Below are positions 998-30,349 of a DNA stretch of 32,000 bases, piece by piece (positions within the stretch are counted from its first letter, which is position 1; each line of letters opens with the position of its first letter). Source of the stretch: an uncultured Chloroflexia bacterium (GTDB lineage Bacteria; Chloroflexota; Anaerolineae; Anaerolineales; Anaerolineaceae); contig OY969938.1 in the NCBI GenBank assembly GCA_963704755.1, forward strand, positions 1,830,001-1,862,000, in the 5' to 3' direction. A program made the position numbers and the translations under genes. The notes beneath the pieces are model-generated. The model saw only the letters and a list, made by a program, of their open reading frames with translations, was not told the origin of the DNA and did no database searches.

Positions 998-1008
998 ATC
1001 TAATCCCC

Positions 1009-2650: not shown

Positions 2651-2665
2651 AAGTTTTACACAGGT

Positions 2666-4033: not shown

Positions 4034-4759
4034 ATGTCTGGAAGACAAACAATGCAGAAGAACGTTTCCATTTTGCTGGTTGAAGGCAAAAGATCTGACC
4101 GGGCTTCCTTTTTAGCTGGCCTGACTAAAAAGAAATTCCAGGTCGAGAGCGCACCCAGCGGTGCAGCTGCCTTGGCACGAATTGAAGAAAACAATCCCGA
4201 TATTATTATCATCGACGCTGCCTCCATGCGGACCAGCGGAAAACGGATTTGTTCCTCGTTAAGAGAGAAGGCCCCAGGAGTCCCTATCGTGCTCATCCTG
4301 GACGAGGCTACCCCCAATAATAACGACCAGGACGTAAACGTCGTTCTCAACCTGCCGTTTACCTTGCAAAAGTTACTCAACCGAATCAAACCCTACCTGC
4401 CCCAGGAACCCAAAAACGTGGTTCGAGCCGGCCCGATCTACCTGGACGTGCAGAACCGCTCGGTCCGCTGTATGGATCACCAGGCCCTGCTGACCCCGCG
4501 CCTGGTCCTGATTTTGCGCCTGTTGATGGAACACGCCGGCCAGGTGATCGAGCGCGAAGCGCTCTTCAGCCAGGTGTGGGATACCACCTACACCGGCGAT
4601 ACGCGCACCCTCGACGTTCACATCAGTTGGCTGCGCCAGGCCATCGAAGACGATCCCCGCCATCCGCGCTATATCAAAACCGTTCGCGGCCTGGGTTACC
4701 GCCTGGACGTTGACGATTTGCAAAATCTCAACGGCCGCTTCACCAAAAAAAGATACTGA
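4034..4759 (+). CDS. OmpR/PhoB-family winged-helix response regulator with atypical receiver domain
   Basis: The C-terminal domain (LTPRLVLILRLLMEHAGQVIEREALFSQVWD......TRTLDVHISWLRQAIEDDP..PRYIKTVRGLGYRL) is a classic Trans_reg_C domain. The N-terminal domain has a CheY-like fold and retains the Asp in IIIIDAAS. The alternative start at 4052 (MQKNVSILLVEG) has a weak GGAAG upstream and may be the real one. Confidence 0.85.
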   Translation: MSGRQTMQKNVSILLVEGKRSDRASFLAGLTKKKFQVESAPSGAAALARIEENNPDIIIIDAASMRTSGKRICSSLREKAPGVPIVLILDEATPNNNDQDVNVVLNLPFTLQKLLNRIKPYLPQEPKNVVRAGPIYLDVQNRSVRCMDHQALLTPRLVLILRLLMEHAGQVIEREALFSQVWDTTYTGDTRTLDVHISWLRQAIEDDPRHPRYIKTVRGLGYRLDVDDLQNLNGRFTKKRY

Positions 4760-6537: not shown

Positions 6538-6550
6538 TTATCTCCTTAAC

Positions 6551-6745
6551 GCCTTCTCCCTCCCAGGGAGAAGGTGGGGATGAGGGTAGATGCCCGCCAG
6601 GGAAATGCCCTGTTGTTCAGCCAGGGCCTGGTCCGGCCGGCGTTGGCCCTCACCCCAACCCCTCCCCCAGAAACAGGAGAGGGGCTAAGAAAGCCCTCCC
6701 TTCCCCCCCAATTGCGGGGGAAGGGAGGGTCGGGAGGGATGAAGG
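6551..6745. repeat. cluster of three family-1 short palindromic repeats (CCCTCTCCC..GGGAGAGGG hairpin plus GGGGTGAGGG-type tail)
   Basis: Copy a, 6551-6587: CCTTCTCCC-TCCCA-GGGAGAAGG then TGGGGATGAGGGT. Copy b, 6646-6685, opposite orientation: GCCCTCACCCCAAC then CCCCTCCCCCAGAAACAGGAGAGGGG. Copy c, 6694-6745: perfect 14-bp stem CCCTCCCTTCCCCC/GGGGGAAGGGAGGG then TCGGGAGGGATGAAGG. The same family occurs at 16955-16996 and 27798-27838. Confidence 0.7.
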
Positions 6746-8656: not shown

Positions 8657-9928
8657 TTAAATCTCGAAGGCCAGCAGCGGCACCAGCATCTCTTCCGGGC
8701 TTAAACCGCCGTGGCGGCCGCGCATTTCGTTTTCTTTTTCCGGCCACCAAAGGTAACCGTTCTCGCGGGCAATCAGGATCAGGTCGCCGATCCGCCGGGA
8801 CGTGCCCTCGTACGGTTTACCTGGGCCAAATAGACCGGCCTGGAGGGCCTTGTCCGCTTCGACGATGGCAAATTCGCCCGGCCAGTAACGCTCTACCGAG
8901 TCCCGGAAGTGCGCTTCATGTCCCGGTCGCAGGTAGCAGTAGGCCAGCCGGTTTTCTCCCGAAGGGGACATGGTCAGGTCCGCCTGCAACAGGGGATAGC
9001 TATGCAGGTCGTAGCGCGGATCGGGTGGGGTATCCAACAGGCCATGATCGGCCGTTACCAGGAAGAGGGTATCGCCCTGCCCTTTCTGGCGCAGCGGCTC
9101 GAGGACCCGCTCCAACATCTGGCTGAAGGCGTAAAATTCGAGGTGGATCCGTTCATCGTCCGGCCCGAAGCGGTGCGAAAGGTCGTCGATGTTCGACCAG
9201 TAAGCATACAGGTAGCGATTGGCCGTTCCCGGCTGGCGGATTTTGCCGCCCAGCGAGATGACCAGATCCGCGGCGGTGCGGTAGGGGGTCTGTTTTTGGC
9301 CGGCGAACAGCATGGACGAAAGCCCGGAATGGGTAATATGAGCCGGTTGGAAGATGCCCGTATCGATGTGATTGGCGGACAGGTGCTTCCCCAGGGTCGG
9401 GACGGGCAGGAAGGTGGCCGGGTCGAAACCGGCCCGGGCCAGCCCGTTGGGATCGTTGCCGAAGGTGCTGGGAGCGTGCAGGATCATGTTGGCGATCAGG
9501 CCATATTCTTTCAGCCAGACTTCGTAACCCATGATGCCGTGCTGGGCGGGGTACACCCCGCTCCAGAAAGTGGTTAAAGCCGAGGCGGTGGTGCTGGGCG
9601 AAATGCTGGTCAAGGCGGCCAGGCTGCCCGCTTCGATCCAGGTTTTCCAGGGTTCTTCACCGGCGTGCTGGCGGAACAGGGTCAGTCCCAGGCCGTCCAC
9701 CAGCAGCAAGACCACCTGGCGGTAGCGCTTTTGGAAGGGGGCCAGGTATGCGCCGTCCAGGCTCCCATTCGAGGGGGCCGGGATATCCAGCCGTTGACAG
9801 ATGCTGGCCGGCAGGTTGGCGTTCGAAAAGCCATCGTAAGCCGGGAAAACACTGCGTTCGCCGGCCGGGATCCCGCTCATTTGGTGAGCGTAAATTTGTT
9901 GGAGAAAATGTTCACTCAGGTCTGGCAT
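8657..9928 (-). CDS. alkaline-phosphatase-superfamily protein (nucleotide pyrophosphatase/phosphodiesterase-like, COG1524 type)
   Basis: VVLLLVDGLGLTLF, SISPSTTASALTTFWSG, LFLVTADHGL and GRHGGLSPEEMLVPLLAF match the metal and nucleophile segments of the type I phosphodiesterase family. The ORF track extends to 10078. I prefer the ATG at 9928 (MPDLSEHF, AGGA 5 nt upstream) for two reasons. The extension has non-protein-like composition, and it runs into the 18-bp inverted repeat at 10027-10087. Confidence 0.8.
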   Translation of the reverse strand: MPDLSEHFLQQIYAHQMSGIPAGERSVFPAYDGFSNANLPASICQRLDIPAPSNGSLDGAYLAPFQKRYRQVVLLLVDGLGLTLFRQHAGEEPWKTWIEAGSLAALTSISPSTTASALTTFWSGVYPAQHGIMGYEVWLKEYGLIANMILHAPSTFGNDPNGLARAGFDPATFLPVPTLGKHLSANHIDTGIFQPAHITHSGLSSMLFAGQKQTPYRTAADLVISLGGKIRQPGTANRYLYAYWSNIDDLSHRFGPDDERIHLEFYAFSQMLERVLEPLRQKGQGDTLFLVTADHGLLDTPPDPRYDLHSYPLLQADLTMSPSGENRLAYCYLRPGHEAHFRDSVERYWPGEFAIVEADKALQAGLFGPGKPYEGTSRRIGDLILIARENGYLWWPEKENEMRGRHGGLSPEEMLVPLLAFEI

Positions 9929-10141: not shown

Positions 10142-11569
10142 GTGCAAAAGAAGGTTCTGGTCGTCAGCTTCAACCCTGCTTTTCGAGATCTGTTGCGCCG
10201 CGGCCTGGAAGAAAGCGGGCGTTACAGCCCGGTTTTAGCGCCTGAGACAGACGCGTGGGATTCACACCTCTACCGTGACGACTTTGATCTGATCCTGGCC
10301 GACCTGGCCACCGGTGAGGAAAACGCCCGAACTATTTTATCCAACCTGGACCGGCTGGCCCCAGACCTGGCGCCGGTCGTGTTCCCGCCCGAAAACGACC
10401 CGCAGCATCCCTGGCTGGAAGACCGAAAGCTGGCCGCCTGCCTGATAAAGCCACTCCATTTATCGGCCCTGCTGGAGGCGCTCGATTCCATCTGTGGACA
10501 GCCGGCCGGAGTGAACGATTGGTACCCCGAGGTCATCCTAGATCCACCCACCCTGGCCAACCTGTTGGCGGACACCCAGGCGACGGCAGGTGTCTTATTG
10601 GAATCCGGCCAGGCTGCTACCATCGCCGGCCAACTGGACGCCGCCGGTGGGGCCGAGGTCACCACGCTGCTGCCCGTCCGGGGAAATGACCTGCCCGGTG
10701 ACCTGGTGCGCTATGCCCACCTGGCAGCCACCGGCCAGGACCATTTGCTTTACGGTGTCTGTTTGAGTGGAGACCGCCTGCTGGTCCTGATTTTCCCGGC
10801 CGAAGTCTCCTACACCCGCGCCCGCGCCGACAGCCAATCTGTGATGGCCATCCTGCAGCCGCGCTCGTCCGTCCCGGCCCGCCAGCCCAACCTGGCCCCC
10901 CTGCCCGAGGTCCAGGATTTGCCCGAAGACGAACCCTCCGCCCCGGCCACGCTGGACCAGCTTTCTCAGCCGGAACCGGACGCAGCCGCATCATTTGCCG
11001 ATTTGCTGGCCGGTAAAGCGGATCCGGCGGGTGAATGGGCTCACGAGCCGAATTTTGAGCAGACGGCTGCTCTCACCGAAGAGTCCTTACCGGCTCCGGC
11101 CGGCCCGGACCTCACGCTGGAAGACACCCGGCCCAATCACCCCGGCAATCCGCCGCCCCCGCTCGAGGCCGGCTTCGTTCCCGCCGCCCAGAAATACACC
11201 TGCGTACTGGTTCCGACCCTGCCCGAGACCAGCCTGGCCGGTGAACCGGGCCAGGCGTTAGCCGCCTGGCTGCAGGAATTCTGCCAGACCTTTGGCTGGC
11301 AGCTCGAGCGCGTCCAGGCCGAGCCGCATTACCTGCTCTGGACGGTCACTTTTACCCCACCCGGTACGCCCGGTCACCTGGCGCGCACCCTGCGCCAGCA
11401 GAGTTCGCGCCTGTTAAACGAGAAGTTCCCCCAAATCTCCGGCGTATTGAACGGGAAAGACTTCTGGGCCCCCGGCTTTTTGCTGGTCAGCGGTGGACAG
11501 GCTCCCCAGCCGGCCCAGATCGAGGACTACATTCAACAGACTCGCACACGCCAGGGCTATCCATCCTGA
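10142..11569 (+). CDS. pseudo-receiver (CheY-like) domain protein with C-terminal degenerate IS200/Y1 (HUH) transposase-like domain
   Basis: GTG start with no obvious SD. A TTGTCT-17 nt-TAAACT promoter-like pair at 10107-10135 ends 6 nt before the start, so the mRNA may be leaderless. Residues 1-115 are receiver-like (KVLVVSFN, DLILADL, CLIKPL). Residues ~352-470 parallel IS200/IS608 TnpA: YTCVLVP, EPHYLLW at the HUH position, FWAPGFLLVSGG, EDYIQQT. A long Pro/Ala/Glu-rich linker sits between the two domains. Confidence 0.8.
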   Translation: MQKKVLVVSFNPAFRDLLRRGLEESGRYSPVLAPETDAWDSHLYRDDFDLILADLATGEENARTILSNLDRLAPDLAPVVFPPENDPQHPWLEDRKLAACLIKPLHLSALLEALDSICGQPAGVNDWYPEVILDPPTLANLLADTQATAGVLLESGQAATIAGQLDAAGGAEVTTLLPVRGNDLPGDLVRYAHLAATGQDHLLYGVCLSGDRLLVLIFPAEVSYTRARADSQSVMAILQPRSSVPARQPNLAPLPEVQDLPEDEPSAPATLDQLSQPEPDAAASFADLLAGKADPAGEWAHEPNFEQTAALTEESLPAPAGPDLTLEDTRPNHPGNPPPPLEAGFVPAAQKYTCVLVPTLPETSLAGEPGQALAAWLQEFCQTFGWQLERVQAEPHYLLWTVTFTPPGTPGHLARTLRQQSSRLLNEKFPQISGVLNGKDFWAPGFLLVSGGQAPQPAQIEDYIQQTRTRQGYPS

Positions 11570-11634: not shown

Positions 11635-14412
11635 ATGCCGCCAACTTTATACCTGATCGACGGCCATGCGCTGGCTTATCGCACTTACTTTGCCTTGAGC
11701 ATGACCAGTCAGAAATTTTCTACCGCTGAGGGCGAGCCAACCGCCGGGACATTCGGCTTTGCCAGCGTCCTGCTGCGCCTTCTGGAACAAGACCAACCCG
11801 AATACCTGGCCGTCGCCTTCGATACCGGGCGGACCTTCCGCAACGACATGTACCCGGAATACAAAGCCACCCGCGCCAAAATGCCGGATGACCTGCGCCC
11901 GCAGATCGAGCGCATCCGCCTGATGGTCGATGCGCTCAACATCCCGCGGATCGAACACGAAGGCGTGGAAGCCGACGACGTTCTTGGCAGCATTGCCCGC
12001 CAGGCGGTCGCCAAGGGTTTTGGGGTGAAGATCATCACCGGCGACCGCGACCTGCTGCAGTTGGTAGATAACCGTATCCTGGTCAACCTGCCCGAGGGCA
12101 AGCTCTCCGACGCAAAAGATTTTGGTCCCAATGAGGTCATGGCAAAGCTGGGTGTTCGGCCCGACCAGGTTGTGGATTACAAAGCCCTGGTGGGGGATAA
12201 ATCCGATAACATCCCCGGCGTGGCCGGCGTGGGGGAGAAGACCGCCATCAACCTGCTGGAAAAATACCAGACCCTGGATGAAATTTACGCTCACCTGGAC
12301 GAAGTGGCCCCGCGGGTGCGCAACCTGCTGGAAAAGTCGCGCGAGAACGCCTATCTCAGCCAGGACCTGGCCACCATTCGCACCGACGTACCGGTCGTGC
12401 TCGACCTGGAAAAAGCCCGTACCAGCGGGATCAATTTGCCGGCGGCCGAGCAATTATTTATCCAACTTGAATTTCGTTCACTCATCCCGCGTTTGAAGAA
12501 ACTCGAAGGCCAGGTTGTGCCGGTCAACGATGGGCAGCAGTTAGCCCTCTTTGGCCAGCCGGTGGTGCAGATCGGCGAACCCGCCCCGGTCGATATTACC
12601 GTCAAAGTGGTCGATTCCGAAGCGGCCCTGGCCGAATTGACGGCGGCCCTGGAAAAGGCCAAACTGATCTCCTTCGACACCGAAACCACCTCGACCGACC
12701 CAATGAGCGCCGGCCTGGTAGGCATCTCCCTGGCCGTCCAACCCGGGGAAGGCTATTACATCCCGGTGGGCCACACCACCGGAGAGCCGCAACTGCCCGT
12801 GGCGCAGGTAATCGAAGCCCTGCGACCGGCCATGAGCGACCCGCACAAGTCCAAGGTCGGGCACAACCTCAAATACGACTGGTTGATGCTGGCCCGCCAG
12901 GGCCTTGAATCCGCCCCCCTGGATTTTGATACCATGATAGCGGCTTTTTTGGTCCAGCCGGACAGCTACAACCTGGGGTTGAAAGATATGGCCCGGGCTT
13001 ACCTGGGTTTGGCCATGACCCACATCGAGGAATTGATCGGTAAGGGCAAGAACCAGACCACCATGAATGTCGTACCCATCCAGCAGGCCGCCAGCTATGC
13101 GGCCGCCGATGCGGAGGTTTGCCTGCGGCTGATGCCTGTGATGCAAAAACGCATGGAGGAGGTCCAGGCGGCCAGGCTCTTCCATGAGATCGAAATGCCC
13201 CTGGTTCCGGTGCTGGCCCAGATGGAACGTAACGGCGTGGCGCTGGATGTAGACCTGCTCAAGAAAATGTCGGTTGACCTGACCAAACGCCTGGGTGAGA
13301 TCGAGACCGAAATCTACGACGGGGTGGGCTATACCTTCAACCTCAATTCCACCCAGCAGCTTTCCAAGGCGCTCTTCGAAACCCTGCGCCTGGAGCCGCC
13401 CGATCGCCGCAAGAAGACCTCCTCCGGCCATTTCTCCACCTCGGCCGATGTGCTGGAAGAGATCCGCCAGCAGCACCCGGTAGTCGAATGGATCCTGGAA
13501 TATCGCGAGCTGTCCAAGCTCAAGTCCACCTACGTGGACGCGCTGCCCCTGCAAGTCAACCGGGTTACCGGGCGCGTGCACACCTCCTACAACCAGACCG
13601 GCTCGGTCACCGGGCGGCTGGCCTCCTCCGACCCCAACCTGCAAAATATTCCCACGCGCACCGACACCGGCCGGCTGGTGCGCAATGCCTTTGTCGCCGG
13701 TCCGGGGCTGAAGCTGTTGGCCGTGGATTATTCGCAGATCGAGCTGCGCATCGTGGCCCACATGGCCAAAGACGAGGCCATGTTGGACGCCTTCCGCGAA
13801 GGGCAGGACATCCACGCCACCACCGCAGCCGCGGTATACGGCGTGCCCCTGAACGAGGTCACCAAGGACCAGCGCCGCCACGCCAAAGCGATCAACTTCG
13901 GCTTGATCTACGGGATGAGCTCGTTCGGCTTGAGCCGCGCCACCGACCTGACCCTGGGCGAGGCGGAGAATTTCGTCAAGGCCTATTTCAAGCGCTTCCC
14001 GGCCGTCAAGAGTTTCCTGGATGGCATCCGCCTCCTGGCCAAAGAACAGGGCTACGTGGAAACCCTGCTCGGCCGCCGGCGTTATTTCCCCAACCTGAAG
14101 AACCCGATCAACAAGGCCATGGTTGCCCGCGAAGAGCGCGAGGCCATCAACGCGCCTGTACAGGGCACTGCCGCCGATATCCTCAAGATCGCCATGGTCC
14201 GTATGCCGGCCGCGCTGGACGCAGCCGGGCTGCACGCCCGCATGCTCTTGCAAGTCCACGATGAGCTGGTGCTGGAGGTACCTGAGGAAGAACGCGATTT
14301 GGCCACCCGGACGGTCAAGCAAATTATGGAAAATGCCTATCCCCTTTCTATCCCACTGCTCACCGAGGCGCGCTGGGGCCATAACTGGGGCTCTTTACAG
14401 GTGTTGGATTAA
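11635..14412 (+). CDS. polA: DNA polymerase I (5'-3' exonuclease, 3'-5' exonuclease and polymerase domains)
   Basis: 925 aa. The 5' nuclease domain has LIDGHALAYRTYFA and ITGDRDLLQL. The exonuclease domain has ISFDTETTS. The polymerase motifs are A (DYSQIELRIVAH), B (RRHAKAINFGLIYGMS) and C (LQVHDELVLEV). AAGGTGA SD upstream. Confidence 0.97.
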   Translation: MPPTLYLIDGHALAYRTYFALSMTSQKFSTAEGEPTAGTFGFASVLLRLLEQDQPEYLAVAFDTGRTFRNDMYPEYKATRAKMPDDLRPQIERIRLMVDALNIPRIEHEGVEADDVLGSIARQAVAKGFGVKIITGDRDLLQLVDNRILVNLPEGKLSDAKDFGPNEVMAKLGVRPDQVVDYKALVGDKSDNIPGVAGVGEKTAINLLEKYQTLDEIYAHLDEVAPRVRNLLEKSRENAYLSQDLATIRTDVPVVLDLEKARTSGINLPAAEQLFIQLEFRSLIPRLKKLEGQVVPVNDGQQLALFGQPVVQIGEPAPVDITVKVVDSEAALAELTAALEKAKLISFDTETTSTDPMSAGLVGISLAVQPGEGYYIPVGHTTGEPQLPVAQVIEALRPAMSDPHKSKVGHNLKYDWLMLARQGLESAPLDFDTMIAAFLVQPDSYNLGLKDMARAYLGLAMTHIEELIGKGKNQTTMNVVPIQQAASYAAADAEVCLRLMPVMQKRMEEVQAARLFHEIEMPLVPVLAQMERNGVALDVDLLKKMSVDLTKRLGEIETEIYDGVGYTFNLNSTQQLSKALFETLRLEPPDRRKKTSSGHFSTSADVLEEIRQQHPVVEWILEYRELSKLKSTYVDALPLQVNRVTGRVHTSYNQTGSVTGRLASSDPNLQNIPTRTDTGRLVRNAFVAGPGLKLLAVDYSQIELRIVAHMAKDEAMLDAFREGQDIHATTAAAVYGVPLNEVTKDQRRHAKAINFGLIYGMSSFGLSRATDLTLGEAENFVKAYFKRFPAVKSFLDGIRLLAKEQGYVETLLGRRRYFPNLKNPINKAMVAREEREAINAPVQGTAADILKIAMVRMPAALDAAGLHARMLLQVHDELVLEVPEEERDLATRTVKQIMENAYPLSIPLLTEARWGHNWGSLQVLD

Positions 14413-16855: not shown

Positions 16856-16875
16856 GCGGGTGAAACCGTGACTAA

Positions 16876-16947
16876 GTGTTACGGTGTTACGGTGTTTCAG
16901 TGTTTCAGTGTTTCAGTGTTTCGGTGTCACGGTGTTACCGTGACATT
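16876..16947 (+). repeat. 8-nt microsatellite, about 9 copies of GTGTTNCR
   Basis: GTGTTACG GTGTTACG GTGTTTCA GTGTTTCA GTGTTTCA GTGTTTCG GTGTCACG GTGTTACC GTGACATT. It begins 21 nt after the TPR stop. Confidence 0.9.
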
Positions 16948-16954
16948 GTTGTTT

Positions 16955-16996
16955 GGCCCCTCTCCCGCTTCTGGGAGAGGGGTTGGGGAGAGGGCC
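16955..16996 (+). repeat. family-1 palindromic repeat copy
   Basis: GGCCCCTCTCCCGCTTCTGGGAGAGGGGTTGGGGAGAGGGCC. It is near-identical to 27798-27838 and related to the three copies at 6551-6745. Confidence 0.85.
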
Positions 16997-17985
16997 AGCC
17001 CCGGTCATCCCAGGCTCACGTTATTTTCCATCGAAAAAAACATTGTTCGGGCCGGTCTCTCCCTCCGCCTTTCAGGCTTCGGCCGAGCCCGCTCTTCAAC
17101 GCGTGTTTGGAAGCCAGCCTGTAGGTTGGGTTGCGGGCTCGATCGCAACATTGGTTATTGGGAAAAACATATCCCAACCCGGGTTTTGCCCGTAACCCAA
17201 CTGGGTATCGCAAACGTTGGGTTTCGGGCAGAGCCCGGCAAAACAAAATGCCCTTCCGTATGCCAATGCCATAAAAGAGCCCGCAACCCAACCTACACGA
17301 ACGCCATGGATAAATAGTGAGGGCCAGCGCCGGTCATCCCAGGTTCACGTTATTTTCCATCGAAAAAAAACATTGTTCGGGCCGGTCTCTCCCTCCGCCT
17401 TTCAGGCTTCGGCCGAGCCCGCTCTTCAACGCGTGTTTGGAAGCCAACCCACGTAGGTTGGGTTGCGGGCTCGATCGCAACATTGGTTATTGGGAAAAAC
17501 ATATCCCAACCTGGGTTTTACCCGTAACCCAACTGGGTATCGCAAACGTTGGGTTACGGGCAGAGCCCGGCAAAACAAAATGCCCTTCCGTATGCCAACG
17601 CCATAAAAAGCCCGCAACCCAACCTACACGAACGCCATGGATAAATAGTGAGGACCAGCCCCGGTCATCCCAGGCTCACGTTATTTTCCATCGAAAAAGC
17701 CATTGTTCGGGCCGGTCTCTCCCTCCGCCTTTCAGGCTTCGGCCGAGCCCGCTGTTCAACGCGTGTTTGGAAGCCAACCCACGTAGGTTGGGTTGCGGGC
17801 TCGATCGCAACATTGGTTATTGGGAAAAACATATCCCAACCTGGGTTTTGACCGTAACCCAACTGGGTATCGCAAACGTTAGGTTACGGGCAGAGCCTGG
17901 AATGTTATGCGGCCCGGCAATTTTCCGGCGTTCATAATGAGCCCGCAACCCAACCTACACGAACTACACGAGCGCATGGATGAAT
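16990..17985 (+). repeat. tandem array A: three head-to-tail copies of a ~330-bp composite unit, each containing a 176-bp element with perfect 18-nt terminal inverted repeats
   Basis: Unit starts (GAGGRCCAGCSCCGGTCATCCCAGG) are at 16990, 17319 and 17650. GTAGGTTGGGTTGCGGGC...GCCCGCAACCCAACCTAC occurs at 17121-17296, 17453-17627 and 17783-17958. By eye, copies differ by only scattered substitutions and 1-2 nt indels. Confidence 0.9.
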
Positions 17986-17986
17986 A

Positions 17987-18013
17987 AAAACCCGGCTTTG
18001 AAAGCCGGGTTTT
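17987..18013. terminator. bidirectional intrinsic-terminator-like hairpin (family-3 CGGCTTTGAAAGCCG motif)
   Basis: AAAA-CCCGGCTT-TGA-AAGCCGGG-TTTT: an 8-bp stem extended by A/T pairs, with an A-tract 5' and a T-tract 3'. It sits 35 nt downstream of the minus-strand SagB-like stop (18048). The same core hairpin recurs at 20790-20806 and 28036-28054. Confidence 0.7.
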
Positions 18014-18015
18014 AA

Positions 18016-18044
18016 ATCTGTGTCCATCCGTGTCTATCTGTGGC
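18016..18044 (-). repeat. CACAGAT-type short repeat block, inverted partner of 27717-27744
   Basis: The reverse complement, GCCACAGATAGACACGGATGGACACAGAT, compares with GCCACAGATAGCACAGATGGACACAGAT at 27717-27744. The 11-nt 5' and 12-nt 3' ends are identical. The middle differs by about 3 changes. Confidence 0.8.
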
Positions 18045-18047
18045 TTA

Positions 18048-18801
18048 TTACTCCACCTTGCGCTTGCCCAACGAGGCCACGTAGACCACGAACTGGTTCT
18101 TCCCATCCAGGCCCAGGGCGGCATTGAGCAGGTCATCGTCGTAGGCCGCGATGGCGCAGGTCCCGCAGCCCAGCGCCTCGCCCACCAGGTACAGATTCTG
18201 GCAAACGTGACCCGCATCCAGCAGAATGTAGCGATAGCCGCGCTCGGAATAACGCCAGGTCGTGCGCTCGGCCACGGCTGCCCACATAAACGTCACCGCC
18301 GAATTCGGCCACCTGGCTCTGGTCATCGCAGCCATGGGTAACCCGCCCGTTGACGTCGCCGCCTCCATCCACCAGGATCAAAGTGTGCTCCAGCGCGGCA
18401 TAACGGTACAGCCCGGGCTGCAGCCCATCCACCCGGTTGACCAGCAAATAAGTCTCGAAGGGATGCCGCGCACCCGCCGAAGGGACCGTTCGGAAAGTAG
18501 CCGGCCGGCTGGTGACCCGCTTGACCCCCTGGGTGTACCACAGCAGCGTGGACAGCTCGTCCAGGGTCAGGGCCTGGTCACTGTAATGGCGCAAGGTCCT
18601 GCGCTTCTCGATCATCTGCCACAGCCCGGCGCCCGGCAGCTTCAGCTCGCGCGGGTCGGCCAGCTTGATATTCGTAGCCGCAGCCGGATCGAAAGGCAGC
18701 TCCAACGCCGGCTGGGGCGAAACGCCTTTCTCCTGGTCGGATACGGGCAAATTAACCTGTTTGCTCTGGTCCCAGAATTTTTTCCCGATGGATTCGCTCA
18801 T
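18048..18801 (-). pseudogene. SagB-type dehydrogenase / nitroreductase-family protein, interrupted by a frameshift
   Basis: Frame A (18801 downward) carries the N-terminal half: RRTLRHYSDQALTLDELSTLLWYTQG...RTVPSAGARHPFETYLLV...GLYRYAALEHTL. Frame B (ending at 18048) carries the C-terminal half: AVTFMWAAVAERTTWRYSERGYRYILLDAGHVCQNLYLVGEALGCGTCAIAAYDDDLLNAALGLDGKNQFVVYVASLG. The switch is near 18297-18310 (GAATTC). Removing one base there gives ...QVAESAVTFMW... and a continuous protein of about 250 aa. Confidence 0.7.
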
Positions 18802-20505: not shown

Positions 20506-20562
20506 CGAGACTATTATAACTGGGGTGGGAAGAGAGTAGAGATTAGAAATGAGAGATTAGTC

Positions 20563-20656
20563 AATGAGGCGAGAAGGCAAAAAGGTGATGAGGTAATGGG
20601 GCAACAAGGTAACAAGGCAATGGGGCAACGAGGCGATGAGGCGATGAGGCGACAAG
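20563..20656. repeat. degenerate 9-nt purine-rich microsatellite (pyrimidine-rich on the murJ sense strand)
   Basis: AATGAGGCG AGAAGGCAA AAAGGTGAT GAGGTAATG GGGCAACAA GGTAACAAG GCAATGGGG CAACGAGGC GATGAGGCG ATGAGGCGA. It lies 58-150 nt upstream of the murJ start. Confidence 0.7.
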
Positions 20657-20668
20657 GATAGCAGCATT

Positions 20669-20930
20669 GTAGCCCGGCTTTCGAGGCCGGGTCTTCGCGC
20701 CAACCGAATATAGCGCTCGCGTAGAGCTGGGTTCGAGCCGGTCCCTCTTTGCCGCCGGCTAAGCCCACTCTTCGATGCAATTTTAAGGGGCCGGCTTTGA
20801 AAGCCAGACTACCCACTGCGATTCGTTTTTGATTGCCAGTAATTTTGGCGCGGTCAAAAAAAAAATGAACCCCACGAAGGTGGGGCTTTGTGTACTTGTA
20901 GGTGCAGCTTTAGCTGCTGTTTGCTAAGAT
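20669..20930 (+). repeat. decayed mosaic of the same repeat modules (GTAG hairpin, family-4-like, family-3 hairpin, partial array-B H2/H3)
   Basis: GTAG+CCCGGC-TTTCGAG-GCCGGG at 20669-20691. GTTCGAGCCGGTCCCTCTTTGCCGCCGGCTAAGCCCACTCTTCGATGC parallels the family-4 module. GGCTTTGAAAGCC+AGACTAC is at 20793-20812. CCCCAC-GAAG-GTGGGG at 20870-20885 is followed by TTGTAGGTGCAGCTTTAGCTGCTGTTTGC, which parallels H2-H3 of array B. Confidence 0.5.
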
Positions 20931-23951: not shown

Positions 23952-25073
23952 CTATCCCAAAACCCCCATCGTAAGCGCTAAAAGCAGCCCGCCGGCGATG
24001 ACCGAACCAAGCTGCCCGGCGGTGTTGGCGCCCATGGCGTGCATAAGAATAAAGTTGTCGAAATCCTCTTCTTTGGCCATCTGGGCGGCCAGCCGGCCGG
24101 CCATAGGGAAGGCGCTGATGCCGCAGGCCCCGATCAGCGGGTTGATCTTGCCGTGGGTCAGCGCCGACATCAACTTGCCGAATAGCAAACCGGCTACCGT
24201 ATCGATCACAAAAGCCAGGAAACCCAGTCCCAGGATTTCCAGGGTTTGCAGGGTCAAAAAGCTGCTGGCGGTCATGGTTGCCCCGATGGTCAGCCCCAGG
24301 AACAGGGTGGCAATATTGATGATCTCATTCTGGGCCGCGTTGCTCAGCCGGTCCACCACCCCGCTTTCGCGCAGCAGGTTACCCAGCATCAAGGTAGCGA
24401 TCAGCGGGGCCGCATCCGGCGCCAAAAGCGAGACGATGACTGTAACCACGATCGGGAAGGCGATTACCACGCCCTTCGAGACCGGCCGGGCGGCGTAATC
24501 CATGCGGATCAGGCGCTCTTTGCGGGTGGTGAGCAGCTTCATGACCGGGATCTGGATGATCGGGATCAGGCTCATGTAGGAATAAGCCGCCACCGTCACC
24601 GGGGCCAGGATTTCAGGCGCCAGCTTGGAGGTAACGAAAATCGCCGTAGGCCCATCGATTGCGCCGATCACCCCGATGGAGGACGCCTGGTTGATGGGGA
24701 ACTTCAGCAAAATAGCCAGCAGCAGGGCCCCGTAAATGCCAAACTGGCCGGCCGCCCCTAACAAGGCCATGTTCGGCATGGCCAGCAGTGGGCGAAAATC
24801 GATCATCGCGCCCACCCCGATAAAGATCAAAAGGGGAAATAATTCAGATTTAATCCCGGCATTGTACAGGACCTGGAAGACCCCGTGATCGGCCGACATG
24901 CCCAGGTTGGCCAGGATGCAGCCAAAACCGATCGGCAGCAGCAGCACCGGCTCGTATTCCTTCACCACCGCCAGGACGATCAGGATCAAGCCGGCCGCTA
25001 TCATGATGGCGTTGCCAACTGTGAAGGCAGTAAAGCCTTTGGATATTTCAGTGAGCAGAGCGGTAAAGTTCAT
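23952..25073 (-). CDS. mmdB: Na+-translocating decarboxylase, beta (membrane pump) subunit (OadB/MmdB/GcdB family)
   Basis: 373 aa, polytopic. Family-typical segments are ISAFPMAGRLAAQMA and HAMGANTAGQLGSVIAGGLLL. GAGGGGG SD upstream. It is the last gene of the operon. Confidence 0.88.
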   Translation of the reverse strand: MNFTALLTEISKGFTAFTVGNAIMIAAGLILIVLAVVKEYEPVLLLPIGFGCILANLGMSADHGVFQVLYNAGIKSELFPLLIFIGVGAMIDFRPLLAMPNMALLGAAGQFGIYGALLLAILLKFPINQASSIGVIGAIDGPTAIFVTSKLAPEILAPVTVAAYSYMSLIPIIQIPVMKLLTTRKERLIRMDYAARPVSKGVVIAFPIVVTVIVSLLAPDAAPLIATLMLGNLLRESGVVDRLSNAAQNEIINIATLFLGLTIGATMTASSFLTLQTLEILGLGFLAFVIDTVAGLLFGKLMSALTHGKINPLIGACGISAFPMAGRLAAQMAKEEDFDNFILMHAMGANTAGQLGSVIAGGLLLALTMGVLG

Positions 25074-25086
25074 TTCACTGGCCCCC

Positions 25087-25524
25087 TCAGTCGGTGTACT
25101 CTAGCAGCACCTGCGAATGGCGTACCTGGTCACCCACACCGACCCGCACCGCGGCGATCTTTGCGCTGCGCGTGGCGCGGATGGCGTTCTTCATCTTCAT
25201 GGCCTCCAGCGTGACCATCTCCTGGCCATATTTCACTTGATCCCCCTCTTTGACCAGCACGGCCACGATCGTCCCCGGGATGGGCGCCAAAACGGCATTG
25301 GCGTTGCTGGGCTTCCCGGCCACGCCAGCAGCCTCAGCCTGGGGAGACGGCAGACTGACCGGCGCACTTGTTTCACCAGCCGCTTGCGAAGCCTCTTCCG
25401 GCCAGACTTCCAGCGTCTCGCCCTCTACAGTCGCCAGGATAGGGCGGCTTTGCAGGTCTTCGATCTCCACTTCAAAGCTTTTATCTTCGATTTTGACTCG
25501 CATTTTCATGGCGCTGATCCTCAC
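25087..25524 (-). CDS. mmdC: biotin carboxyl carrier subunit (biotinyl domain)
   Basis: 145 aa. The C-terminal biotinyl domain has the EAMKM motif (VTLEAMKMKNAIRATRSAKIAAV). The start overlaps the upstream gene's stop (ATGA at 25521-25524). Confidence 0.88.
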   Translation of the reverse strand: MRISAMKMRVKIEDKSFEVEIEDLQSRPILATVEGETLEVWPEEASQAAGETSAPVSLPSPQAEAAGVAGKPSNANAVLAPIPGTIVAVLVKEGDQVKYGQEMVTLEAMKMKNAIRATRSAKIAAVRVGVGDQVRHSQVLLEYTD

Positions 25525-25892
25525 ACTCTTCGGGTTTTTAGCCGGGCACTTTGGTTGATCTGGCTGGAGCGGCGAGCCGCCTGCCAGGGTGAAAGGGATT
25601 GGCCGGCCCGCGGCACCAGGTTTAGCCGGCTGGCCTGCAAGGCCAGTGCAGTCGCCACGGCGACCGCCGCAGCGCGTCTTCGCAAGGCTTTGGCTTCCAT
25701 TTCAAGCGCTTCGGCGTCAGCGGAATCGCTCTCGGCCGTCCCAGCGCCTTCCAGAATTTCCTCGTTTTCTTCCTGGTGAGGAACTCGGATGCGCGCCATC
25801 CAGGCCATCAATCCCCACAGCAAAATCAGAGCCAGGAAGACCAGCCCCATACCGATCAGGGTGATCAACAAACCTTGGGAAATTTCAGACAT
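25521..25892 (-). CDS. OadG/MmdD-like small membrane-anchor subunit of Na+-decarboxylase
   Basis: 123 aa. A single N-terminal TM (GLLITLIGMGLVFLALILLWGLMAWM) is followed by an Ala/Glu-rich tail. Its position between the carboxyltransferase and the biotin carrier matches the usual operon layout. Confidence 0.7.
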   Translation of the reverse strand: MSEISQGLLITLIGMGLVFLALILLWGLMAWMARIRVPHQEENEEILEGAGTAESDSADAEALEMEAKALRRRAAAVAVATALALQASRLNLVPRAGQSLSPWQAARRSSQINQSARLKTRRV

Positions 25893-25916
25893 ATCGGTTT
25901 GCTCCTTTGCTCGGCG

Positions 25917-27467
25917 CTACAGCGGGATATTGCCATGCTTGCGCGCGGGGGTGGAGATGGATTTATCACGTAAGGCAGCCAGTGCCGCGATCACCCGCAT
26001 ACGTGTTTCCCGCGGCTCGATGACGTCGTCCACAAAGCCGTCAGCGGCGGCCGCGTACGGATTGAGGAATTTCTTGCGGTATTCATCGATCACGCGGGCG
26101 CGCTCGGCTTCCGGGCTTTCCGCTGCCTCGATCTGCTTGCGGTAGAGGATGTTGGCGGCGCCCTCCGGGCCCATGACGGCAATCTCGGCGCTCGGCCAGG
26201 CAAAGCTGATATCCGCGCCCATCAGTTTGGAGCTCATCACGATCATCGCCCCCCCATAGGCTTTGCGGGTGATAATCTGCACCTTGGGCACACTCGCCTC
26301 GGAATAGGCGAACAGCACCTTGGCCCCGTGGCGAATGACCCCGCGGTGTTCCTGGTCCACGCCCGGCAGGAAGCCGGGTGAATCCAGGAAGGTGACCAGG
26401 GGAATGTTGAAGGCGTCGCAGAAACGGACGAAGCGGGCGATCTTATCGGACGAATCGATGTCCATCACCCCGGCCAGCATGGCCGGCTCCTGCGAGACGA
26501 TGCCGACCGTCGAGCCGCCCATACGGGCCAGGCCGATGATGGCATTACGGGCAAAATCGGCCTGTAGTTCCAGGAATGAATCGCGGTCCACGATCATGCG
26601 GATGGCATCGTGCATCGAATAAGGCGAGGCCGGGCTAAGCGGCACCAGGCTGTTCAGGGCCGGGTCCATCCGGCCGGGGTCGTCGCCGTTATCCAGGTAG
26701 GGCGGGTTTTCGACGTTGTTCGACGGCAGGTAAGAGAGCACCTGGCGGCACAGTTGGACCGCCTCTTTGTCGCTGGGCGACTTCAAATGGGCCGTCCCGC
26801 TGATGCCGTTGTGAACATCCGCCCCGCCCAGGCTCTCCGAGTCGACCACTTCACCGGTGACGGACTTGATCACTTCCGGGCCGGTCAGGAACATGAAGGA
26901 CTGTTTTTCCACCATGATGATCAGGTCGGTCACCGCCGGAGAATAGGCCGCCCCGCCGGCGCAAGGGCCCATCACCAGGCTGATCTGGGGAATGACCCCC
27001 GAGTAGAGCGTGTTACGCTGGAAAATCTGGGCGTATCCGTACAGGCTGCGTACCCCTTCCTGGATGCGCGCCCCGCCCGAGTTGATCAATCCAATCACCG
27101 GGCAGCCTGCCCCGGCGGCCATGTCCAGCAGCCGGGCGATCTTTTTCCCGTGCATTTCACCCAACGCCCCGCCTATGACGGTGAAATCTTGGGCATACAC
27201 GTACACAGTCCGGCCGTTGACACTGCCAAACCCGGTCACAACCCCATCACCGGGATATTTGGGACCACCACCCAGGTCGTCACTGCGATGGGTGACGTAT
27301 GGCTCCAATTCTGTGAAAGTACCGGGGTCCAACAGTGCATCAATGCGCTCGCGGGCCGTCAGTTTGCCCTTGGCGTGTTGTTTTGCAATCCTGTCCTCTC
27401 CGCCGGCCATTCGCGCCTTCGCGCGCATTTCGCGCAGCTCGATAATTCGGGGATCTTCTTCGGGCAT
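25917..27467 (-). CDS. mmdA: methylmalonyl-CoA decarboxylase alpha subunit / acyl-CoA carboxyltransferase (propionyl-CoA carboxylase beta family)
   Basis: 516 aa. It reads as a carboxyltransferase throughout (GKLTARERIDALLDPGTF.E, INSGGARIQEGV, GPCAGGAAYSPA.TD, FLPG..QE..GVIRHGAK). AGAGGAAA SD upstream. Substrate specificity cannot be read from the sequence. Confidence 0.9.
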   Translation of the reverse strand: MPEEDPRIIELREMRAKARMAGGEDRIAKQHAKGKLTARERIDALLDPGTFTELEPYVTHRSDDLGGGPKYPGDGVVTGFGSVNGRTVYVYAQDFTVIGGALGEMHGKKIARLLDMAAGAGCPVIGLINSGGARIQEGVRSLYGYAQIFQRNTLYSGVIPQISLVMGPCAGGAAYSPAVTDLIIMVEKQSFMFLTGPEVIKSVTGEVVDSESLGGADVHNGISGTAHLKSPSDKEAVQLCRQVLSYLPSNNVENPPYLDNGDDPGRMDPALNSLVPLSPASPYSMHDAIRMIVDRDSFLELQADFARNAIIGLARMGGSTVGIVSQEPAMLAGVMDIDSSDKIARFVRFCDAFNIPLVTFLDSPGFLPGVDQEHRGVIRHGAKVLFAYSEASVPKVQIITRKAYGGAMIVMSSKLMGADISFAWPSAEIAVMGPEGAANILYRKQIEAAESPEAERARVIDEYRKKFLNPYAAAADGFVDDVIEPRETRMRVIAALAALRDKSISTPARKHGNIPL

Positions 27468-27716
27468 ACGGTTTCCTCTTTTTATGGGATGATTTAGGGG
27501 ATTTTCAGAGGGGGGTACCTCGCGCAGGGTCGACGTTCAGTGGGCAGCCGCCTGGCGGTGAACATACCCACCATCCGCGCCGGAAACGGCCTGCCCGGGG
27601 AAACACGTGGAAATTGAGGTACCCAATAAAACCTGAGGGGAAAATTAATTTATTCTACTATAACACAGGCACCCTGGAGAAGTTGCCAGCCAATTTCTTC
27701 GCCTGCGGAGATAGTT

Positions 27717-27744
27717 GCCACAGATAGCACAGATGGACACAGAT
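27717..27744 (+). repeat. CACAGAT-type short repeat block, inverted partner of 18016-18044
   Basis: GCCACAGATAGCACAGATGGACACAGAT. See the feature at 18016-18044. Confidence 0.8.
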
Positions 27745-27797
27745 AAAGATTTTTTTTGGAAGAATTGGGTTGGATTAGGCGTGGTTGGGATTAGTTG

Positions 27798-27838
27798 GGC
27801 CCCTCTCCCGTTTCTGGGAGAGGGGTTGGGGTGAGGGC
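27798..27838 (+). repeat. family-1 palindromic repeat copy
   Basis: GGCCCCTCTCCCGTTTCTGGGAGAGGGGTTGGGGTGAGGGC, preceded by GGTTGGATTAGG/GGTTGGGATTAG short direct repeats. Confidence 0.85.
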
Positions 27839-27963
27839 AGGCCCCGGTCTTACCGGGTGCATGCAGGTTGGGTGAGCGCTTTTTTACAAGCCTTAACCGC
27901 CTACAAACCCAATGGTTCTTAGCATGGGGTTTGTTGTTATATGTTGTTAAACGGTATAAAAGC

Positions 27964-28054
27964 CATTGTTCGGGCCGGTCTCTCCCTCCGCCTTTCAGGC
28001 TTCGGCCGAGCCCGCTCTTCAGCGTATGCCTAGAACTCGGCTTTGAAAGCCGGG
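27964..28054 (+). repeat. family-4 module followed by family-3 hairpin
   Basis: CATTGTTCGGGCCGGTCTCTCCCTCCGCCTTTCAGGCTTCGGCCGAGCCCGCTCTTCAGCG is almost identical to 17041-17103 and to its copies in array A. CTCGGCTTTGAAAGCCGGG follows. Confidence 0.85.
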
Positions 28055-28081
28055 CAACCATCCACCGGCTCGGAATTTTTT

Positions 28082-29256
28082 AGTCGAGGTGATATTGTTG
28101 GGTTCGGGCAAAACCTTTGCAGATAAACACCAGGTGTCTGGCCAGTGTTGTCAATCCGCCCGAACCCAACCTACGCGAGCGCTGTAAATCAACCGCACAA
28201 AAGTTTACATTGAGCCCCACGAAGGTGGGGCTTCGTGAATTTGTTGCCGCGACCTCGGTCGCCAACGCATGTCGAAGAACCCGTCTTCGAAAGTCAAGCT
28301 ACCATACCGCTCCACCGAATTTTCAAGTCGGGGTGATATTGTTGGGTTCGGGCAAAACCTTTGCAGATAAACGTCTGGAATCTGGCCAGTGTTGTCAATC
28401 CGCCCGAACCCAACCTACGCGAACGCCGTTATCATCGGGTAAAAAATCTGAATTGAGCCCCACGAAGGTGGGGCTTCGCGAATTTGTTGCCGCGACCTCG
28501 GTCGCCAACGCATATCGAAGAACCCGTCTTCGAAAGTCAAGCTACCATACCGCTCCTCCGGATTTTCAAGTCGAGGTAATATTGTTGGGTTCGGGCAAAA
28601 CCTTTGCAGATAAGCGCCAGGTGTCTGGCCAATGTTGTCAATCCGCCCGAACCCAACCTACGCGAGCGCCGTTATCATCGGGTAAAAAATCTGAATTGAG
28701 CCCCACGCAGGTGGGGCTTCGTGCATTTGTTGCCGCGACCTCGGTCGCCAACGCATATCGAAGAACCCGTCTTCGAAAGTCAAGCTACCATACCGCTCCT
28801 CCGGATTTTCAAGTCGAGGTAATATTGTTGGGTTCGGGCAAAACCTTTGCAGATAAGCGCCAGGTGTCTGGCCAATGTTGTCAATCCGCCCGAACCCAAC
28901 CTACGCGAGCGCCGTTATCAGCGGGTAAAAAATCTGAATTGAGCCCCACGCAGGTGGGGCTTCGCGAATTTGTTGCCGCGACCTCGGTCGCCAACGCATA
29001 TCGAAGAACCCGTCTTCGAAAGTCAAGCTACCATACCTCTCCTCCGGATTTTCAAGTCGAGGTAATATTGTTGGGTTCGGGCAAAACCTTTGCAGATAAG
29101 CGCCTGGAATCTGGCCAATGTTGTCGACGAGCCCGAACCCAACCTACGCGAGCGCTGTAAATCAACCGCACAAAAGTTTACATTGAGCCCCACGAAAGTG
29201 GGGCTTCGTGCATTTGTTGCTGCGACCTTGGTCGCCAACGCATATCGAAGAACCCG
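28082..29256 (+). repeat. tandem array B: about 4.8 copies of a 243/244-bp four-hairpin unit
   Basis: Unit starts (AGTCGRGGTRATATTGTTGGGTTCGGGC) are at 28082, 28326, 28569, 28812 and 29055. The last copy breaks off after ...CGAAGAACCCG near 29256. Confidence 0.92.
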
Positions 29257-29416
29257 GGTTCCTAACCCGAGAATTACCCAACTCACAGGCGATACTGGCC
29301 GAGTGGCGGATCGGTATGCGGCCAGAAACCGGTATAATAATTTTATTGTCTCAACCGGAATGGGGATTTTCTGCAACCGAACCCAAAAAAGCAAGAGACC
29401 CCCAAAAGAAGTAAAA

Positions 29417-30349
29417 ATGATCCTGACAGAACAACTTACCAAGACTTTTCAAGTCCATCGCAACCAACCGCCCATCCGGGCCGTGCAAGAACTGACCCTG
29501 GAAGTGAAAGAGGGCGAAGTTTTCGGCTTTTTAGGCCCCAACGGCGCCGGTAAAACCACCACCGTGCGCATGCTGACCACCCTGATCGGCCCGACCAGTG
29601 GGCGGGCTTCCATCGGAAAGCTCCAGGTTGGCAAAGATGACGAGAAAATCCGCCGGTCGGTCGGCATTTTGACCGAAACACCCGGCATGTACGAGCGCCT
29701 GAGCGCTGAAAAGAACCTGACCATTTTCGCCCGCCTGTATGACGTGCCGGACGTGCCCGGCCAGGTTGAAAAATATCTGCGCATGCTGGGTTTATGGACC
29801 CGGCGCATGGACGAAGTCGGCAGTTTCTCCAAAGGCATGCGCCAGAAGCTGGCCATCGCCCGCGCTTTGCTGCACGAGCCCCAGGTGCTCTTCCTGGACG
29901 AACCCACCAGCGGCCTGGACCCCGAAGCCGCCAAAATCGTGCGCGACTTCATCGAAGAACTGAAAACTGAAGGGCGCACTATCTTCCTTTGCACCCATAA
30001 CCTGGATGAGGCTGACCGCCTGTGTGACCGCATCGGCATCTTCAAATCCCGCCTGATCGTGATCGATACGCCCGAAAAGCTGCGCCAGAAATTGTATGGC
30101 CGGCGGGTGGTGTTCCACCTGGCCAATCTCGACCCGGCCTGGAGCGACCTGTTGAAGCAAAACGAGTTCGTCCACGAGATCCAGGTGGTGGAAAACCGCC
30201 TGATCGTCAGCCTGGACGATCCCGAATCTCAAAACCCGGCCCTGGTACGCCGCCTGGTCGAAGCCGGCGCCGAGATCCAGTTCGTAGGTGAGCTGCGCCA
30301 CTCCCTGGAGGACATCTACCTGCAAACCATCCAGAACGGGGAAGAGTAA
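29417..30349 (+). CDS. ABC transporter ATP-binding protein (ABC-2/DrrA-like exporter type)
   Basis: Walker A GPNGAGKTT, Q-loop, signature FSKGMRQKL, Walker B VLFLDEPTSGLD, H-loop CTHNL. The ORF track begins at 29090 inside the repeat array. The protein-like sequence begins at MILTEQLTKTF (ATG at 29417). Confidence 0.92.
   Translation: MILTEQLTKTFQVHRNQPPIRAVQELTLEVKEGEVFGFLGPNGAGKTTTVRMLTTLIGPTSGRASIGKLQVGKDDEKIRRSVGILTETPGMYERLSAEKNLTIFARLYDVPDVPGQVEKYLRMLGLWTRRMDEVGSFSKGMRQKLAIARALLHEPQVLFLDEPTSGLDPEAAKIVRDFIEELKTEGRTIFLCTHNLDEADRLCDRIGIFKSRLIVIDTPEKLRQKLYGRRVVFHLANLDPAWSDLLKQNEFVHEIQVVENRLIVSLDDPESQNPALVRRLVEAGAEIQFVGELRHSLEDIYLQTIQNGEE

Follow-up and report, generated by a model that had tools for sequence, protein, structure and literature searches.

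The described systems closest to the locus reported here are tandem clusters of repetitive extragenic palindromic (REP) sequences and of REP doublets forming hairpins (REPINs). In Pseudomonas fluorescens SBW25, higher-order arrangements of REPINs most often consist of a REP or REPIN reiterated in tandem along with its flanks, and the origin of such ordered clusters was left open by Bertels and Rainey (PMC3116915). Bacterial interspersed mosaic elements (BIMEs) of Escherichia coli combine a REP-type palindrome with short conserved motifs, and in BIME-2 regularly spaced REPs alternate in orientation around conserved inter-REP motifs (PMC2817692). Tandem reiteration is also known for GTAG repeats generally, one Chloroflexi genome included (Di Nocera et al. 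2013, PMC3733652). In this study, we analysed a 32,000-nucleotide stretch from an uncultured Chloroflexia bacterium of the Anaerolineaceae (contig OY969938.1, positions 1,830,001 to 1,862,000; hereafter the window), which contains a tandem array of a 243/244-bp unit with four hairpins, H1 to H4, between two divergent operons. The array is probably a lineage-specific cluster of the BIME or tandem-REPIN type, that is, non-coding hairpin modules of intergenic regions amplified in place, and in all likelihood represents a young pile-up of selfish or neutral repeats specific to this species rather than a new RNA gene.

Like the SBW25 clusters, the array consists of near-identical head-to-tail units of an inverted-repeat hairpin plus flanks, is extragenic, carries a GTAG-type tag and comprises few units over hundreds of bp, the largest SBW25 cluster having four REPINs in >700 bp (PMC3116915). 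Unlike them, it has a longer, 243-bp unit with three further hairpins from other module families, its arms are not palindromic REPs and only the 3' arm is tagged, its host belongs to the Anaerolineae and not to the proteobacteria, and no REP-associated tyrosine transposase (RAYT) is adjacent, nor was an active one found in the window. It shares with the E. coli BIMEs the joining of a REP-type palindrome to short conserved motifs, the variable tandem number and the intergenic location, whereas BIME units measure ~100 bp or less, are built from 35-40-bp short-loop REPs and are located for the most part in transcribed DNA, either 3' or inter-cistronic, not between divergent promoters (PMC2817692). 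With the GTAG superfamily, which is present in Chloroflexi and includes the mostly 'grouped' GTAG-23 elements of Thermomicrobium roseum, H1 shares the terminal GTAG/CTAC tag at the stem and the stem length (up to 12-13 bp in GTAG-24); loops measure 2-27 nt in that survey, against 34-136 nt here, and the head sequence of H1, GTTGGGTT, was not found in the searchable supplements of the survey, which distinguishes 24 families (PMC3733652). The original prediction had pointed to REPs and BIMEs and yet knew of no described family for so regular a unit. Its lead holds, in that H1 is a tagged palindrome whose family recurs in a second array of the window and in a metagenome and whose head is found in REPs of Pseudomonas, Inquilinus and Hormoscilla; its reservation does not, considering the SBW25 clusters and the tandem GTAG repeats cited above. 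BOX of Streptococcus pneumoniae is also a modular intergenic element (boxA-boxB(n)-boxC) with stable stem-loops, in which one module is tandemly reiterated. Its reiterated module is 45 nt long, compared with a 243-bp composite, lacks a GTAG tag and is unrelated in sequence.

The array and its hairpins

Tandem Repeats Finder reported the array at 28075-29256 (period 243, 4.9 copies, 92% matches, score 1940), a gap-free repeat finder gave spacings of 244, 243, 243 and 243 between copies, and mean column identity in the five-copy alignment of the 243-bp unit is 93%. These values agree with the ~4.8 copies and the unit starts originally read from the sequence, and the array takes up 61% of the 1949-bp intergenic region, as expected from an earlier estimate of about 60 percent of 1.95 kb. 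Only its left limit had been drawn too short, at 28082; homology reaches 28033, and the same 7-mer, GAACYCG, bounds both ends.

The unit is a mosaic of H1, a spacer, H2, H3 and H4 with a tail, as is typical of BIMEs: H1 is a GTAG/CTAC-tagged, REP-like long hairpin, H2 is of terminator type, and H4 is a decayed GGCTTTGAAAGCC-type hairpin. In all five copies the 13-nt arms of H1 (GTTGGGTTCGGGC/GCCCGAACCCAAC) are 100% complementary and 48 nt apart, and CTAC directly follows the 3' arm; AACCCAACCTAC has 11 matches in the window against 0.1 expected. H4 and the tail derive by mutation from the GGCTTTGAAAGCC-type module and make up every inter-unit junction. All four hairpins are present in both the minimum-free-energy and the centroid fold of the unit, with z-scores relative to shuffles of -3.8 (RNA, + strand), -3.0 (RNA, - strand) and -4.2 (DNA). 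The positions assigned to them at the outset proved accurate, including those of H2 (28214-28231), H3 and H4.

The tag of H1 and the location of its family are those of REPs and REPINs. H1 is a palindromic stem-loop followed by CTAC, its counterpart in a sister array of 330-bp units is tagged with GTAG/CTAC, and each of the 21 occurrences of the GTTGGGTT head in the window falls between genes. Furthermore, H1, H2 and the parent module of H4 each recur independently elsewhere in the window.

Three other kinds of element were considered for the array. The H1 arms could be taken as terminal inverted repeats of a MITE (miniature inverted-repeat transposable element). No direct repeat, however, lies beside H1 (ATATT...CTACG), and the window holds no insertion sequence (IS) or transposase with such ends; the match to a known MITE or IS remnant that was to be looked for did not appear, there being no target-site duplication and no phage, plasmid or viral match (BLAST of the unit against phages and plasmids; H1 arm against viral contigs). 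A clustered regularly interspaced short palindromic repeat (CRISPR) array, in which direct repeats of 24-48 bp alternate with unique spacers of similar size, is rejected on the 243-bp period, the lack of unique spacers, a variable patch with two alleles only and a CRISPR-DR28 score of 18 bits versus a threshold of 35. An integron attC array is likewise rejected on architecture. An attC site is an imperfect palindrome of consensus 5'-RYYYAAC ... GTTRRRY-3' with extrahelical bases, and cassettes lie between such sites, with an integrase nearby. The arms in the array do fit the 7-mers, but whichever strand is read, their order is reversed (5'-GTTGGGT ... ACCCAAC-3') and they pair perfectly; cassettes are absent, and no tyrosine recombinase is encoded in the window.

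Copies, relatives and the growth of the array

The five copies record exchange among themselves. The four-gamete test fails for 9 of the 15 pairs among the 6 partitions into which their 19 informative sites can be grouped; such incompatibility backs the recombination or gene conversion between units proposed earlier. Between the inner copies c3 and c4 there are 3 differences, compared with 18-27 between an edge copy and the others. The alignment also confirmed the variants originally read in the H2 loop, the two spacer alleles and the two alleles of the H1 insert. The spacer alleles had been called unrelated, whereas they are ~56% identical with one gap, and the relative L006 (see below) holds an intermediate version.

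Stems vary less than the rest of the unit. Variable columns amount to 0/65 in stems versus 35/144 elsewhere, and without the hypervariable patch to 4/85 versus 18/92 (p = 0.003). Given that variable sites occur in clusters and that the copies are of recent origin, this depletion is suggestive only, and hairpin-templated correction or recency could be its source. No base pair is altered on both sides among the five copies and the covariation score does not exceed that of shuffles, although copies so similar lend this count support in neither direction; on the + strand, the base of H2 accommodates G-U pairs. The original prediction that stems stay intact is therefore borne out in that the stems are invariant, but they never vary at all, with no pair changed on both sides. 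In the same way, selection on secondary structure has the depleted stem columns in its favour, and against it the lack of compensatory change, of an Rfam match and of conservation in relatives; the covariation check that was to accompany it gave no support either way.

The relative L006 (ENA ERZ23486237), with a carboxyltransferase 96% identical, keeps the same divergent gene pair, and the DNA beside both start codons is conserved at 72-86%. In place of window 27691-29290 (1.6 kb), it has 136 bp, with one H1-like element whose arms are decayed and part of the spacer, and no H2-H4. At five loci of 83-91% identity, 370-840 bp lie upstream of the decarboxylase operon, and the modules are all absent from them. 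Since the array is absent from relatives and the open reading frame (ORF) running through it has no foreign homologue, the array appears to be young and lineage-specific. As regards the effect on expression suggested at the outset, the start-codon-side blocks are conserved in a relative without the array, so that the array lies outside the conserved promoter-proximal DNA, and its position between these blocks suggests that it is probably tolerated rather than required.

In the history proposed here, a single H1-type element would have stood between the divergent promoters of the ancestral locus, as it does in the 96% relative. Judging from the array edges, two copies of the GGCTTTGAAAGCC-type module may then have come to flank an H1-H2-H3 segment, and unequal recombination or slippage at the GAACYCG microhomology would have produced the first 243-bp duplication, the edge module at 28033-28074 being the presumed left partner in this founding exchange. 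Further unequal exchange could have raised the number to five copies and homogenised the inner ones, and gene conversion would have shuffled short patches, the result of which is the observed mosaic. Ordered REPIN clusters and tandem GTAG-repeat clusters have been described as arising likewise (PMC3116915, PMC3733652).

Related modules and neighbouring features

The positions of the array, its modules and related features are collected in Table 1. The second array lies between convergent genes, and each of its 330-bp units includes a nested REPIN-like element, with 19-21-bp arms (GTAGGTTGGGTTGCGGGCTC ... GAGCCCGCAACCCAACCTAC) 136 nt apart plus an inner inverted pair; GTAG and CTAC flank both arms, the GTTGGGTT head and the tag are as in H1, and the DNA fold of the element has z = -7.0. 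Gene callers are expected to place two spurious ORFs over this array (16868-17317 and 17317-17937; no Pfam match). Altogether, the H1 family is represented in the window by the two arrays, by a single degenerate element at 20713 and by a degenerate derivative in four copies. This derivative is a 67-78-nt module (ATTGTT..CGGGC ... GAGCCCGC..CAAC), and the GGCTTTGAAAGCC hairpin module has solo copies at 17994 and 20793. On the - strand, the H1-H2 spacer of the 243-bp unit contains the displaced T-run of a terminator-type H2 module.

Table 1. Coordinates in the window of the 243/244-bp array, its modules and other features
Feature	Position	Strand	Description
Whole 243/244-bp array	28033-29256	+	5.03 units; edges GAACTCG 28033-28039 and GAACCCG 29250-29256
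Array left edge	28033-28074	+	Intact GGCTTTGAAAGCC hairpin module; 68% identity to inter-unit junctions (hand count)
H1, copy 1	28097-28174	+	13-bp perfect arms, 48-nt loop with inner 5-bp hairpin, 3' CTAC tag; REP/REPIN-like module
H1, other copies	28341-28418, 28584-28661, 28827-28904, 29070-29147	+	Repeated in each unit
Hypervariable H1-H2 spacer	28175-28209	+	Allele A in copies 1 and 5; allele B in copies 2-4
H2, copy 1	28212-28233		9-bp stem, GNAR-like tetraloop; recurs every 243 bp
H3, copy 1	28243-28266		4 + 5 bp stem, 2-nt CC bulge, 2-nt written loop; paired positions invariant among copies
H4 and unit tail	28272-28318	+	TCGAAGA-ACCCG-TCTTCGA, then AAGTCAAGCTACCATACCG; H4 proper 28272-28290
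67-78-nt module	27958-28032	+	91-97% identity to three copies in the 330-bp array (17035, 17365, 17695)
Intrastrand-triplex-type motif	27794-27857	+	CCCCTCTCCC..GGGAGAGGGG..TTGGGGTGAGGGC; also written CCCCTCTCCC..GGGAGAGGGG..GGGGTGAGGGC
Sister array	16990-17964 (flanks 16856-18132)	+	2.7-2.9 copies of 330-bp unit; convergent intergenic region
Degenerate singlet of H1 family	20713-20790	+	GCGCTCGCGTAG-AGCTGGGTTCGAGCCGG ... CCGGCTAAGCCCAC, GTAG-tagged; third intergenic region
Solo H2 module	20868-20887	-	Good intrinsic terminator with T-run; shares only ~40 nt with the 243-bp unit
Promoter-proximal DNA, decarboxylase operon	27468-27690	-	Conserved with L006 (72% and 82% blocks)
Putative extended -10 TGTTATAGT	27657-27665, reverse-complemented	-	Putative promoter, decarboxylase operon
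Promoter-proximal DNA, ABC transporter operon	29291-29416	+	86% identity to L006
Putative -10 TATAAT	29333-29338	+	Putative promoter, ABC transporter operon
Y1_Tnp-like gene	10142-11569	+	475 aa; Pfam 2.5e-11; upstream of polA (11635-14412)

Short tandem oligomer runs edge the repeat-rich intergenic regions (16876-16942; 20562-20657; 27717-27744 and, on the - strand, 18016-18044). They comprise GTGTTACG x 8, a G-rich 8/16/24-mer (GGCAACAAGGTGATGAGG...) and CACAGAT x 3, which has opposite orientations at the two array regions; we take them to be reminiscent of the short tandemly repeated repetitive (STRR) heptamers of cyanobacteria. The triplex-type motif recurs at 16951-17014, where it abuts the 330-bp array, and reversed at 6646-6685 on the - strand; a similar one lies at ~6550-6590, the motif type being CCCTCTCCC / GGGAGAGGG / GGGGTGAGGG. 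Pan-bacterial intrastrand-triplex repeats, which these copies match, have been tied to local instability (Holder et al. 2015, PMC4666352), and the presence of two such motifs beside the two arrays fits this link.

Outside this genome, a metagenome scan with both H1 arms found an intergenic pair of long-loop hairpins (L009) that carries GTAG/CTAC on the outside, GTAG-GTTGGGTTCGGGCAG[loop]CTGCCCGAACCCAAC followed by GTTGGGTTATCGC...GCGATAACCCAAC-CTAC. Both hairpins have a common 8-nt head, the distal stem of the second is different yet complementary, and no relation exists between the loops; neither the tags nor the second hairpin belonged to the search pattern. Another contig that matched the arm pattern (L010, Ga0114946_10000127) did so by its own symmetry, being a perfect palindrome of several hundred nt at ~1000-1600 with its centre at ~1307, almost certainly an assembly fold-back artefact.

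A scan of species-representative genomes with AACCCAACCTACRCGARCGC gave four matches, three of which are REPs of other phyla and one (L001) a chance match within a gene, with no Anaerolineae copy. Classical short GTAGGTTGGGTT-headed REPs are found in Hormoscilla (a cyanobacterium), Inquilinus (an alphaproteobacterium) and Pseudomonas oryzihabitans. In P. oryzihabitans DE0602 (L004, NZ_VDND01000003.1, 5298-5862), a 239-bp x 2.4 tandem mosaic has almost the same period as the 243-bp array and joins a GTAGGTTGGGTT-headed REP to a CCCTCTCCC..GGGAGAGGG..GGGGTGAGGGC triplex-type motif, both being module types of the repeat regions in the window. Unlike the array, it contains a classical short-hairpin REP, the rest of its unit is unrelated and it has only 2.4 copies; considering that it belongs to another phylum, the likeness is one of module types and not of array descent. 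The 11-mer GCGCCGTTATC adjoins the REP head both in the window (28418-28428, 3' of CTAC, allele B of copies 2-4) and in L004 (~5365-5380, 5' of GTAG, in opposite orientation), an unexplained coincidence that may be due to chance. A literature search for the GTAGGTTGGGTT and AACCCAACCTAC strings returned nothing but unrelated primers.

The operon left of the array, on the - strand, encodes a biotin-dependent Na+-pumping decarboxylase (carboxyltransferase, OAD gamma, biotinyl carrier and OAD beta), and homologues of its carboxyltransferase carry the annotations Bellilinea, Longilinea, Ornatilinea and Levilinea, which places the host in the Anaerolineae; on the right, on the + strand, is an ABC-2 transporter operon. 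No DnaA boxes occur in the array and no DnaA-box or origin enrichment in the window, and ARAGORN found no tRNA or tmRNA. Upstream of the decarboxylase operon, one relative at 91% identity (L005, ENA ERZ25039495 contig_89789, 8937-9351) has an unrelated 206-bp x 2.0 tandem repeat, on a contig with many split genes, as is typical of uncorrected long-read assembly. In the relatives L007, L012 and L013, genes for a response regulator, a BFN-nuclease, DnaB and DnaB_2 directly follow the decarboxylase operon. In the window the same genes lie ~19 kb off in the opposite relative order (1-4759 versus 23952-27467), and the rearrangement or insertion is bounded by repeat-rich intergenic regions.

Weighing the explanations

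Several points weigh against a REP/BIME-type cluster. H1, with 78 nt and a 48-nt loop, does not conform to the size and short loop of REPs (20-40 bp); it is tagged on the 3' arm only, the 5' side reading TATT in place of GTAG; and in the 32-kb window, GTTGGGTT heads are confined to the two arrays and degenerate singlets, REPs and REPINs being typically scattered over a chromosome in tens to hundreds of copies. An intact RAYT, a Y1 transposase with intact HUH and Tyr that is usually flanked by its REPINs, was not found within the 32-kb window, variable sites are significantly scarcer in the stems than expected if the array were purely neutral, and the model of a founding exchange depends on a 68%-identical stretch of 57 nt and one 7-mer. 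By its architecture, H1 seems closer to a REPIN or a MITE than to a REP, and its 13-nt arm GTTGGGTTCGGGC is not self-complementary. We therefore keep the array outside the named families, since the REP definition of size and loop does not apply and the search for further copies and for a RAYT covered 32 kb of the 4.87-Mb host contig.

That the array is retained for a DNA function between the divergent promoters, either as an insulator of five weak bidirectional H2 terminators or as a platform of extrudable palindromes and protein-binding sites buffering the negative supercoiling from divergent transcription, is unlikely, albeit the most plausible of the alternatives. The array lies exactly between the conserved promoter-proximal blocks, its stems are depleted of variation, three units have an H2 that resembles a terminator on the + strand, the solo H2 is a good terminator on the - strand, and ordered tandem clusters were considered suggestive of specific roles by Bertels and Rainey (PMC3116915); a buffering role would be modelled on the proposed interactions of BIMEs with gyrase and integration host factor (IHF), specific binding of IHF, DNA gyrase or Pol I being a known property of BIMEs. 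However, the array is missing from the 96% relative, despite its identical gene pair, and from every relative further removed, the T-run of the H2 copies within it stands 9 nt off the - strand stem and, on the + strand, is weak, and H1 with its 48-nt loop would extrude poorly. Moreover, the sister array occupies a convergent 3' context, so a position relative to promoters is not common to the two. Alternatively, each unit could be a structured non-coding RNA gene in a tandem family, or the array could give one long repetitive RNA with four conserved helices, and its strong, reproducible fold, its invariant stems with varying loops and the G-U pairs at the H2 base would suit such an RNA. This is an improbable explanation, because the Rfam check of the unit gave 0 matches at gathering score and only chance-level ones at E <= 10, pairs changed on both sides are missing and the covariation score lies within shuffles, no sigma-70-like promoter was found in 27300-29600, and the unit folds about equally on both strands and as DNA, as a palindrome does. 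The unit is, in addition, absent from close relatives, and its modules occur separately elsewhere in different company.

Expansion of one or two real units by the assembler, long-period tandem repeats being a classic source of assembly error, is very improbable: the copies can be told apart by 3-27 pairwise differences, an indel of 1 nt and the two alleles of the spacer, the copy at the left edge is distinct, the source contig is one 4.87-Mb piece, and a second, differently built array is present in the same window. A protein with 81-residue repeats (243 = 3 x 81) is effectively refuted. Although the + strand ORF at 28117-29160 (347 aa) is open over 4.3 units, a public annotation (P0121) calls a 311-aa gene across the array and the summed Pfam RcsF score is marginal, no single Pfam stretch passes alone. 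The ORF has a TTG start and an Arg/Cys/Ser/Thr-rich translation, the frame of copy 1 differs from that of copies 2-5 so that the same DNA reads NPPEPNLRER in one copy and SARTQPTRTP in the others, and among 5.8 billion proteins its sole homologue is the identical sequence of the same genome. P0121, which carries a precomputed Pfam RcsF match, is a spurious call arising from a repeat period divisible by three.

A more adventurous and equally improbable variant of the REPIN theme, set about level with the RNA gene, is that Anaerolineae have their own live REPIN-like system, with a constant GTAG-GTTGGGTT head, varying distal stems, 34-136-nt loops and long-period mosaic arrays, in which a hairpin-recognising protein maintains the arms. 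The perfect arms here, compared with the decayed singlet in L006, would then reflect ongoing maintenance by this protein, which could be an undiscovered RAYT or, more speculatively, the product of the Y1_Tnp-like gene, as a domesticated hairpin-binding factor. In this product, an N-terminus with weak likeness to CheY is joined by a long linker of low complexity to a Y1 fold of the IS200 type at the C-terminus, with xYLxW in place of HUH and, in relatives, Phe for the catalytic Tyr; its gene stands immediately upstream of that for DNA polymerase I here and in the Anaerolineae contigs L015 and L016, and its family comprises 680 clusters at E <= 1e-10. With the catalytic motifs missing and no repeats in its short flanks, the gene is rejected as a RAYT, and from its sequence the protein looks like a domesticated, catalytically dead HUH domain.

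Thus, we favour a lineage-specific cluster of BIME or tandem-REPIN type amplified in place, in which H2 might, as a secondary side effect, terminate transcription weakly in both directions, or supercoiling might be absorbed. If this reading is true, the array opens no new class of elements and represents ordinary REP/BIME-type clustering, of which there are hardly any descriptions from this phylum. It would also explain spurious gene calls, one such ORF being public with a precomputed Pfam match. Furthermore, L006 with one decayed element and the present genome with five units and edge modules would provide a clean before-and-after pair for the origin of an ordered REPIN cluster.

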